DNA of 63,358 nucleotides, filler included, from Thermodesulfobacteriota bacterium (lineage in GTDB: Bacteria; DASVDK01): the NCBI GenBank assembly GCA_036381125.1. It is 7 parts of 7 records of this genome, joined end to end, with 100 filler letters (N's around TTAATTAATTAA, not from the genome) between each part and the next. Parts side by side here need not be neighbours in the genome. Positions count along the whole stretch, not along the records: positions 1 to 3,916 come from DASVDK010000031.1; 6 more parts are not named here. One strand, written 5' to 3'. The translations under genes and the position numbers were made by a program. Under the pieces are notes generated by a model. It ran no database searches, was not told the origin of the DNA, and saw nothing but the letters and a program-made list of their open reading frames with translations. Positions 1-3,053 of this stretch are shown piece by piece; position 1 is the stretch's first letter, and the number at the start of each line of letters is the position of its first letter.

Positions 1-1217
1 ACCGTCCCGCCGGTGCCGTCCACGTCGCCGAACTCGAAGAGCCCTTGGCCGACCAGCGTGCGGACGGGACCGGCACCGTCGAGGTCGACGGCGCGCACGG
101 CCGACGCCTCGCTATCGGCGACGTAGAGGACGCGGCCGTCGGCGGCGAGGCCGGACGGCTGGTTGAAGCCGGCCTGCTCGCGCGGGCCGTCGACGAGCCG
201 CTCGTGGCCCGTGCCGGCGAAGTGGTCGAGGCGGTCGGTCCCGTCGAGGGCGAGCCGCCAGATCTGGTGGCACCCGGCCATCGCAAGGTAGAGCCAGCCG
301 CCCGCGGCCAGGCAGTCCCAGGGGGAGTTGAGCGCGGTCTGCCGCGCAGGGCCGGACGGCCGCACCGGACCGATCTGCTGCCGGCCGGTGCCGGCCAGGG
401 TCTCCACGACGCGGCTGCCGAGGTGCAGGCGGCGGACCGCGTGGTTGCCGGTCTCGACCACGTAGAGGTGCGGGCCGACCAGGGCGAGCCCCTGCGGCTC
501 GCGGAAGCGGGCCCGCTCGAAGGGACCGTCCTCGAATCCCGGCTCGTCGGCGCGTCCGGCCTCGTCGAGGAGTGTGCCCGACTGGTCCGCCACGACGATC
601 CGGTGGCGCCCGGTGTCGCTCACGAAGAGCCGATTGCCGCCCGGCTCGGCGAGGAGCTTGCCGGGGAAGCGCAGGGCGGTCCGGGGCAGCGCCGTCCCAC
701 CCGACCGGGGGGTGATCGTGAGCGAGAACGGCTTCGGGCCGGCCGCGAGCCGCCCGGCCGCCCGCGCCTCGTCGGCGAGCCGGCCGATGTACTGTCGCAG
801 CAGCGGCCCGTGGCCCTCGCCGCTCACGCCGCCCACGACGTAGCCCTGCGGGTCGACGAGGACGAGGGTCGGCCAGGCCCGCACCCCGTAGCGCTGCCAG
901 ATCTCGAAGTCGGCGTCGTTGACGACCGGGTGGGTGACGCCGTGACGAGCGACCGCTTCGACGAGGCTCGACGACTCGCGCTCGTTGGGGAACTTCGCCG
1001 AGTGGACGCCCACGACCACCAGCGCGTCGCCGAACTCGGCCTCGAGCGCCTCCAGCTCCGGGAGGACGTGCAGGCAGTTGATTCAGCCGGACGTCCAGAA
1101 GTCCAGGAGCACCACCCGGCCGCGCAGCGCCGCCATCGTGAGCGGCCGGTCGACGTTCACCCACTCGCGCCCGGCAGGGAACTCCGGGGCCCGCACGCGC
1201 GGCTCCGGCAGGGACAT
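1..1217 (-). CDS. Thioredoxin-like + NHL-repeat protein (NHLRC2/SOQ1-like), probable selenoprotein; 3' end runs off window
   Basis: Manual translation from ATG 1217 (RBS GAGGAGG): MSLPEPRVRAPEFP...VVLLDFWTSG-UGA-INCLHVLPEL...VVGVHSAKFPNER...WPTLVLVDPQG...LRFPGK...SDTGRHRI...GLFEFGDVDG. In-frame TGA at codon 45 (1083-1085). Absent from the ORF track. Confidence 0.9.
1045..1067 (-). promoter_or_regulatory. Candidate bacterial SECIS hairpin
   Basis: mRNA after UGA reads AUCAACUGCCUGCA-CGUCCUCC-CGGAGCU-GGAGGCG; CCUCC/GGAGG stem with a G-rich loop starting ~22 nt after UGA. Coordinates approximate. Confidence 0.6.
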
Positions 1218-1278
1218 CGGTGCCTCCTCGCGCTCCGTTCCCTCCCTCCAGGGCATCCTAGCTCGCGCACGGGTCGGC

Positions 1279-2345: not shown

Positions 2346-3053
2346 ATGAGGCACAGCGTACGCGTTCTCTCCCGCCTGTCCGCGGTCCTCCTGGCGTCGT
2401 GCCTGGCGGTCCCGGCAGGCCTCACGCCGACTACGCCCGCGGAGGCGAGTCTCATCGGCGACCCGACGCTCACGACCGGGGCCGGTCGCTTCGCCGTCGG
2501 CGGCGAGATCGACATCGTCTTCGACCGCGACATCGACTTCGATCGGGGCGACGGCGACCTCAACACGAACCGGTTCCTGGCGACAGGCTCCTACGGCTTC
2601 CTCCAGAACTGGGACGGCTTCGTGAAGCTGGGTCTCTTCAACGGCGAGCTCGACCCGGGCGGCGCCGACATCGATCCCGGCTTCGCCATCGGCGTCGGCG
2701 CCAGGGGGAGCTTCGTCGACCGGGGCGACTTCCGGTTCGGCGCCCTCGCGCAGTTCCTCTACTTCACGTCGGACGTCGACACGGCGGGCAGCCCCGACAT
2801 CGACTGGTTCGAGATCGACCTCGCCCCGGCCGTGAGCTACCGGGGTCTCGGCCAGATCGTCCCCTACGGCGGCCTCAAGCTGAGCTTCGTGGACGGCGAG
2901 GTGGACAGCCCCGGCGGCGACTTCGACGCGGACGACATCATCGGCATCTTCGGCGGCGCGTCGTTCGCGGTGACGCCGCAGTTCAACCTGGGCGCCGAGC
3001 TCCGCCTCCTCGACGAGACCGCCCTCGGGTTCTACGCCCGGTACGCCTTCTAG
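2346..3053 (+). CDS. Outer-membrane beta-barrel protein, paralog 2
   Basis: RBS GAGGAGG; signal peptide ending AEA; C-terminal FYARYAF (BAM beta-signal-like). Confidence 0.8.
   Translation: MRHSVRVLSRLSAVLLASCLAVPAGLTPTTPAEASLIGDPTLTTGAGRFAVGGEIDIVFDRDIDFDRGDGDLNTNRFLATGSYGFLQNWDGFVKLGLFNGELDPGGADIDPGFAIGVGARGSFVDRGDFRFGALAQFLYFTSDVDTAGSPDIDWFEIDLAPAVSYRGLGQIVPYGGLKLSFVDGEVDSPGGDFDADDIIGIFGGASFAVTPQFNLGAELRLLDETALGFYARYAF

Follow-up and report, generated by a model that had tools for sequence, protein, structure and literature searches.

A predicted selenocysteine-containing thioredoxin-like/NHL-propeller protein with a UxxC active site in a Thermodesulfobacteriota genome

An interrupted gene at the beginning of the analysed DNA of a Thermodesulfobacteriota bacterium is, with a high degree of confidence, a genuine selenoprotein gene of the thioredoxin-like/NHL-propeller (Trx-NHL) family, in which codon 45, a TGA, specifies selenocysteine (Sec). 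The term window designates the whole stretch that was analysed (63,358 nucleotides, filler included). Over bases 1-1300 it corresponds to the start of contig C31 (3916 nt) of a MAG of 4.33 Mb, which comprises 382 contigs and is 96% complete and is referred to here as the source genome.

Gene structure, family membership and genomic surroundings

The partial coding sequence lies on the minus strand (3..1217), comprises 405 of about 499 codons and is cut off by the start of contig C31. Its ATG (1217-1215) is preceded at a spacing of 5 nt by the Shine-Dalgarno sequence GAGGAGG (1223..1229, minus strand). Translation might alternatively start at a further in-frame ATG (1256), but the N-termini of the homologues and the Shine-Dalgarno sequence favour the one at 1217. 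Forty-four sense codons precede the TGA (1083..1085, minus strand), which is found in the context DFWTSG-U-INC and is aligned with the first cysteine of the CxxC motif; TGC at 1074..1076 encodes Cys48, designated by sequence and alignment as the resolving partner of the predicted U-x-x-C centre. Behind the TGA the frame is open up to base 3, which is the contig edge, and the read-through product has the sequence MSLPEP...LLDFWTSG-U-INCLHVLPELEALE...VGVHSAKFPNE...AWPTLVLVDP..., followed by NHL repeats. The initial annotation had described an ORF with a strong ribosome-binding site and TGA as codon 45, which can be read directly on the minus strand, and its continuation through VHSAKFPNE, WPTLVL and NHL motifs to the edge, which is borne out by translation and Pfam.

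The remainder of the gene, ~92 codons followed by a TGA stop codon, is located on contig C267 (C267:3-281), outside the window; about four codons are missing between the two contigs. No further stop is present in the 405 codons of the window or in the orthologue of a sister species of the same genus (genome G001), which comprises 499 codons. Elsewhere in the source genome TGA is an ordinary stop codon and terminates 2742 of 4617 long frames, the end of this gene on C267 included. The ORF track had been said to miss the gene entirely. No intact gene is listed, but the ORF list obtained with translation table 11 contains two pieces of it, one of 57 aa up to the TGA and one of 339 aa starting from a GTG at 1019, and the gene is therefore split rather than wholly missed.

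In the read-through product, Pfam detects a Thioredoxin_8 domain (residues 33-127, E 2.4e-15) and NHL repeats (E 3.1e-13), the former region also matching PF00578, PF08534 and PF13098; no NCBIfam model is passed. The thioredoxin-like domain, supported by Pfam, alignment and a structural model, is encoded at 837..1121 (minus strand) and includes the cis-Pro motif WPT (867-875). The NHL β-propeller follows at 3..677 (minus strand), the window covering blades 1 to ~4.5, and in the full orthologue it consists of six four-stranded blades. An AlphaFold model of the G001 orthologue (pLDDT 89.7, pTM 0.88) displays a thioredoxin fold and these six blades, with residue 45 positioned directly before helix 46-50. 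The top Foldseek matches of the model are headed by 6gc1 (E 1.4e-53, TM 0.78) and 7djk (E 7.6e-53) and include 6g7w, and a phmmer search against solved structures returned SOQ1 (7djj, E 1.6e-96) and NHLRC2 (6gc1, E 2e-88) for residues 8-404.

NHLRC2 is an essential human gene, which is mutated in FINCA disease, and its product is cytosolic; SOQ1 controls a photoprotective quenching pathway. The active sites in 7djj and 6gc1 read DFWTYCCINC and DFFTYCCINC, respectively, in agreement with the CCINC motif that had been attributed to both proteins, and correspond to DFWTSG-U-INC in the window protein; 7djk has SSINS at this site, i.e. all three cysteines are replaced by serine. The Arabidopsis protein SOQ1 (7DJJ, 7DJK) has in common with the window protein a six-bladed NHL propeller immediately behind a thioredoxin-like domain and the pattern DFWT-x-x-[C/U]-INC. 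It differs in the C-C-INC motif, for which the window protein has G-U-INC with Sec in place of the first CxxC cysteine and glycine in place of the extra one, and in its C-terminal domain (CTD), HAD domain and membrane anchor, all of which are lacking in the window protein, as is a signal peptide. Human NHLRC2 (6GC1, 6G7W) likewise has the two-domain core, with CCINC versus UINC, and the window protein, having no recognizable signal peptide, is presumably cytosolic like NHLRC2; the latter differs by a cysteine at the Sec site and by a C-terminal β-stranded domain with a conserved cysteine pair. The G001 orthologue ends 18-21 residues past the last blade, and this C-terminal domain is absent from it in the alignment. 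The designation as NHLRC2/SOQ1-like therefore holds for the Trx-NHL module, and the protein is a short-form relative of this module rather than a full counterpart of NHLRC2 or SOQ1.

No neighbouring gene is shared throughout the family, the neighbours being clade-specific (75 downstream loci and 17 of 78 upstream loci considered). NC10 genes are accompanied by a DAC or an aldo-keto reductase gene, and in two genomes by an upstream DsbA-like gene. In most of the Dehalococcoidia loci (L062-L111) the convergent downstream gene encodes the release-factor methyltransferase PrmC, a curious adjacency, as the UGA in the neighbouring gene must escape release factor 2; it is probably plain synteny. In G001 (locus L030) a small ORF that by eye resembles pterin-4a-carbinolamine dehydratase (PCD) and a citrate synthase gene (Pfam) are located downstream on the same strand. 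In the window, two tandem paralogous genes (1380-2177 and 2346-3053, plus strand) are transcribed divergently from the selenoprotein gene. Their products have N-terminal signal-like segments and a C-terminal Phe, the first one matches OMP_b-brl (E 5.4e-07) and the second one has no Pfam match; judged from these features, they are probably small outer-membrane β-barrel proteins. The intergenic region upstream of the selenoprotein gene (1278-1375) contains palindromic repeats, with two copies of GGGGTCAGG(C/T)CTTTCCATTTTCC facing two copies of GAGACCTGACCCCG. A 23-mer of the repeat occurs exactly on seven contigs, and 26 contigs contain a total of 29 copies of a 14-nt core; the metagenome contig depth rises abruptly to ~116 at the cluster, and a similar repeat adjoins selC in G001. 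The cluster resembles dispersed elements of the REP or MITE type and is a likely cause of the fragmented assembly.

Conservation of codon 45 and distribution of the Sec and Cys forms

In an alignment with 15 database relatives, codon 45 occupies the column of the invariant first cysteine of the CxxC motif, where the homologues read DFWTY(C/G/A)-C-INC; the pairing of Cys and UGA in one column, postulated in the initial annotation, is thus present. In a protein search, 116 of the best 120 matches contained a Trx-type Pfam domain, and 11 of these, when aligned, had cysteine at the site. Related loci were collected from contigs of one genome per species with search patterns derived from Sec-type sequences, and the best 80 of 299 confirmed stretches were analysed. 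Within these best 80 of 299, TGA was present at this column in 59 loci from several phyla and cysteine in the remaining 21, proportions which do not represent a family-wide frequency because of the Sec-type-derived patterns and the restriction to the best 80. The contexts of the 59 TGA codons among the best 80 of 299 were TYC-U-INC (52), TYC-U-VNC (3), and one each of TSG-U-INC, TYA-U-INC, TSC-U-INC and TFG-U-VNC. As the TGA falls on the catalytic cysteine column and the same codon recurs in 59 of the best 80 of 299 loci, its position is not due to chance.

The G001 orthologue, which is 95% identical and otherwise uninterrupted, has the same TGA. All six substitutions between the two species within codons 1-44 are synonymous, and the region between 20 nt 5' and 71 nt 3' of the TGA is free of substitutions, compared to one per 10-40 nt elsewhere. 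Codons 1-44 are also kept in all TGA-type relatives among the best 80 of 299, a pattern indicative of purifying selection on this segment. One of the Sec-type Dehalococcoidia genes (L069:1501-2961) has an extra stop codon other than TGA at residue 84 and is otherwise intact; this stop either marks the gene as a pseudogene or results from faulty assembly.

A quick maximum-likelihood tree of 80 proteins, from which L069 was left out, requires at least three changes between Sec and Cys, two of which are forced by well-supported branches. The window protein belongs to a clade of seven rows (support 97), its sister is a clade of nine rows (support 100), and a third clade comprises 42 rows. Of the 40 relatives searched, G001 is the sole genome of the same genus and none of the others is closer than "same domain", so that the lineage of the source genome appears to be phylogenetically very isolated. 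Despite this isolation, the window protein groups with proteins from Methylomirabilota-labelled genomes, for which horizontal transfer could be responsible.

The two forms also differ in their architecture. Before the DFW motif, the Sec-type proteins have about 40 residues and no signal peptide and the Cys-type proteins mostly 61-129 residues; the Cys-type N-termini printed in the alignment include a hydrophobic anchor. Among the best 80 of 299 loci, 55 of 57 measured Sec-type proteins end at most 30 residues after the last blade and the other two at 74 residues. A CTD of ~160 residues occurs in none of the 57 Sec-type proteins, while tails of 119-176 residues are present in 15 of 21 Cys-type proteins, and the cysteine-pair motif of the CTD was found in 12 of 21 Cys-type genes and in no Sec-type gene (best 80 of 299 in each case); because only two or three clades and a biased sample are involved, this association of Sec with the absence of the CTD is a lead rather than a result. 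The source genome contains no separate CTD gene detectable by tblastn with six CTD queries (E <= 0.01).

Candidate SECIS element, Sec machinery and alternative readings

Bacterial SECIS elements of the E. coli fdhF type are hairpins within the coding region, located at a short fixed distance after the UGA and carrying a G in the apical loop. A candidate for such an element is found in the window at 1047..1068 (minus strand), with the arms CG(U)CCUCC (1068-1061) and GGAGGCG (1053-1047), the loop CGGAGCU (1060-1054) and a predicted energy of -9.0 kcal/mol; the stem begins 14 nt after the UGA. Position and apical-loop G agree with the fdhF type (loop CGGAGCU here; UGGAC, AGUU and CGCG in relatives), the difference being that at least four hairpin designs occur at one site, clade by clade. 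Sec-type genes have a predicted hairpin 14-22 nt 3' of the TGA, which is absent from the Cys-type genes. Folding of 39 nt beginning 12 nt after the codon start yielded mean energies of -11.9 kcal/mol for 60 Sec-type sequences versus -5.7 kcal/mol for 21 Cys-type sequences at a GC content of 0.55 versus 0.53 (Mann-Whitney p 1.2e-8, a value that is overstated because the sequences are kin). On the strength of these sequence comparisons, the hairpin accompanies the UGA over the relatives as a family feature.

At this single site, the predicted hairpins of the gene family fall into at least four designs, and each design goes with a particular clade of proteins. Type A1, CG(U)CCUCC [CGGAGCU] GGAGGCG, is that of the window and of L032-L035, L041 and L064, i.e. 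of the seven-row clade. Type A2, CCAGAGC [UGGAC] GCUCUGG, is found in nine NC10/Methylomirabilota loci, which form the sister clade, and type B, UUUCCGC [AGUU] GCGGAAA, in 43 Chloroflexota, Armatimonadota and Fervidibacter loci, namely L069 and all members of the 42-row clade. Type C, with a longer interrupted stem and the loop CGCG, is present in one Planctomycetales locus. In type B, 99.6% of the stem positions are paired in 38 distinct sequences, with two compensatory pairs (UA to CG and UA to GC), compared to 31-74% pairing in slid controls. The stems of A1 and A2 overlap, and columns 24 (C/G) and 42 (G/U) set which of the two forms. Relative to their own shuffles, the hairpins have z values of -2.65 (A2), -2.04 (B) and -2.55 (C); the A1 hairpin of the window has a z of 0.08, with 100 of 200 shuffles folding at least as well. 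No covariation was seen in the window clade (six distinct sequences): its stems are invariant in six of six distinct sequences, the proteins being 58-66% identical to the query, and columns 19-44 vary in the loop only and columns 45-60 freely. Support for the window hairpin is therefore indirect and comes from its position, the G in its loop and the invariant stems. The stem of the NC10 type (columns 28-34 with 40-46) has two mismatches in both the window and G001 and was discarded as an alternative for the window.

Of the genes for Sec incorporation expected in the source genome, selD (351 bits), selA (577 bits) and selB (339 bits) were found above the cut-offs in a profile search of the contigs, and selC was not found. 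The selD gene (contig C156:487-1425, locus L017) itself has one in-frame TGA at the active-site position (AG-U-ASK), and the source genome therefore encodes at least one other candidate selenoprotein. Presence of selA was rejected as a discriminator between the two types, since it is found in 29 of 29 Sec-type genomes tested versus 18 of 21 Cys-type genomes and is thus necessary but not telling. Searches of the source genome for tRNA-Sec with RF01852, with ARAGORN over the whole genome, by motif and stem-geometry scans and by blastn with the selC gene of G001 yielded no tRNA-Sec gene; the top RF01852 match (46.4 bits, cut-off 47) is a tRNA-Ser(UGA), and two odd "tRNA-???" calls by ARAGORN are false positives. 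In G001, tRNA-Sec is found with 71.7 bits and the anticodon TCA (ARAGORN). A 760-nt flank located ~750 nt from selC in G001 matches contig C236 of the source genome to 9 nt from the contig end, and a dispersed repeat lies in the stretch between this flank and selC. Judged from this comparison, the absence of selC from the source genome is likely due to an assembly break at the repeat.

Three other readings of the interrupted gene have to be weighed against Sec insertion. Termination at the TGA would yield a 44-residue peptide and a separate propeller protein starting from GTG 1019, as expected from the two pieces in the ORF list and from public gene calls, in which the four nearest proteins in the database (P0002-P0005, 72-94% identical) all begin at the position corresponding to GTG 1019. 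However, this GTG has no Shine-Dalgarno sequence, and the thioredoxin fold of the separate protein would be incomplete, with strand 1 and the active-site helix missing. Together with the purifying selection on codons 1-44, their conservation in TGA-type relatives and the location of the TGA exactly on the catalytic cysteine column, this makes such a split very improbable. A pseudogene or sequencing error, i.e. a nonsense change of a TGC or TGT cysteine codon, would require a single base exchange, and an additional stop is indeed present in one relative, L069. Moreover, some metagenome contigs have a G at 1083 (T>G), resulting in TGC; these show many further differences and originate from Cys-type relatives in other organisms. 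On the other hand, contigs of two other studies show no difference from the window over the codon (X2 record 12, 990-1185; X5 record 21, 1043-1193), which confirms the TGA at 1083-1085 and argues against an assembly error. The same TGA is present in 60 sequences forming at least two well-supported clades, and neither the window gene nor the G001 orthologue has another stop or a frameshift, so that this explanation is given hardly any credence. RNA-library runs X18 and X19 contributed only short contigs of relatives on the window, and because of this origin contigs over codon 45 cannot prove transcription.

The UGA might also be read through without selenium, either as Cys or Trp by near-cognate decoding or as Cys by a Cys-charged tRNA(Sec), resulting in an ordinary CxxC or WxxC protein. 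The selC gene not found in the source assembly fits this view, which is nevertheless extremely unlikely in the light of the retained selA, selB and selD genes, the in-frame TGA in selD, the hairpin accompanying the UGA in relatives, the use of TGA as the commonest stop codon of the genome and the tRNA-Sec of G001. The decoding of the UGA as Sec, as put forward in the initial annotation, is supported by the cysteine column, by the 59 TGA loci among the best 80 of 299, by selA, selB and selD and by the synonymous changes upstream of the codon.

Proposed function and implications

With Sec at position 45, the product would be a cytoplasmic two-domain selenoprotein composed of a thioredoxin-like domain with the centre U45-I-N-C48 and a six-bladed NHL propeller, the location being deduced from the apparent lack of a signal peptide. 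During translation, the mRNA hairpin just 3' of UGA-45 may recruit SelB with Sec-tRNA(Sec), and Sec would be inserted instead of termination; at the TGA at the gene end, which has no such hairpin, translation would stop. Located at the N-terminus of helix α-1, Sec45 would act as the attacking nucleophile and form a selenenylsulfide with Cys48, to be recycled by an upstream reductant, and the propeller presumably holds the substrate. A 2024 preprint on SOQ1 (bioRxiv 10.1101/2024.11.01.621559) describes the thioredoxin domain as a disulfide reductase which passes electrons to the CTD, reports methionine-sulfoxide reductase activity of the cysteine pair of the CTD on LCNP, and notes a conserved cysteine pair in the C-terminal β-stranded domain of NHLRC2. 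If a substrate is to be guessed, oxidised protein sulfur, i.e. a disulfide, a sulfenate or methionine sulfoxide, seems the best candidate by analogy to SOQ1.

As the Sec forms lack the CTD as acceptor, the target of their U-x-x-C centre must be a different one. A tentative and rather doubtful extension of this argument is that they constitute a distinct cytoplasmic two-domain architecture without a C-terminal acceptor, in which U-x-x-C would be the terminal catalyst acting on the propeller-held substrate; selenium may then enable the thioredoxin domain to carry out reactions, such as the reduction of sulfoxides, sulfenates or disulfides, for which the Cys forms rely on the CTD. In the same tentative scheme, the SECIS would have been rebuilt at least three times at one site, once apparently by two point changes between overlapping hairpins.

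Selenoproteins with a thioredoxin fold and a UxxC motif are a long-established kind. Table 1 of a 2026 review (PMC13188914) includes the Prx-like thiol:disulfide oxidoreductase (PF00578), thiol:disulfide interchange (PF13098) and Redoxin (PF08534) families, which, as catalogued there, resemble the window protein in the UGA at the first CxxC cysteine, the existence of Cys homologues and a SECIS in the coding region, for which the window gene has a candidate. They differ from it as generic redoxin families, a comparison made by listing, and an NHL fusion is possible among their representatives. The words "NHL" and "propeller" do not occur in the main texts of PMC13188914, PMC13326102 (BSepDB) and PMC12013277 (deep-Sep), and full-text literature searches did not retrieve any paper dealing with a Sec form of NHLRC2/SOQ1; supplements may still list the family. 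New in the present analysis are the switch between the A1 and A2 hairpins, the link between Sec and the absence of the CTD, and the explanation of the missing selC by an assembly gap. Because gene callers truncate the genes, databases contain the Sec form as fragments labelled "NHL repeat" or "YncE-like", in which it goes unnoticed.

The natural series of predicted SECIS hairpins at one position could serve to study what SelB requires. The role of the CCINC site in NHLRC2 and SOQ1 is still being worked out. The widespread natural substitution by Sec singles out the second cysteine of CCINC as the residue that attacks and speaks for genuine redox catalysis at this site, and the link between Sec and the absence of the CTD provides a testable hypothesis on why selenium is used in Trx-NHL proteins.
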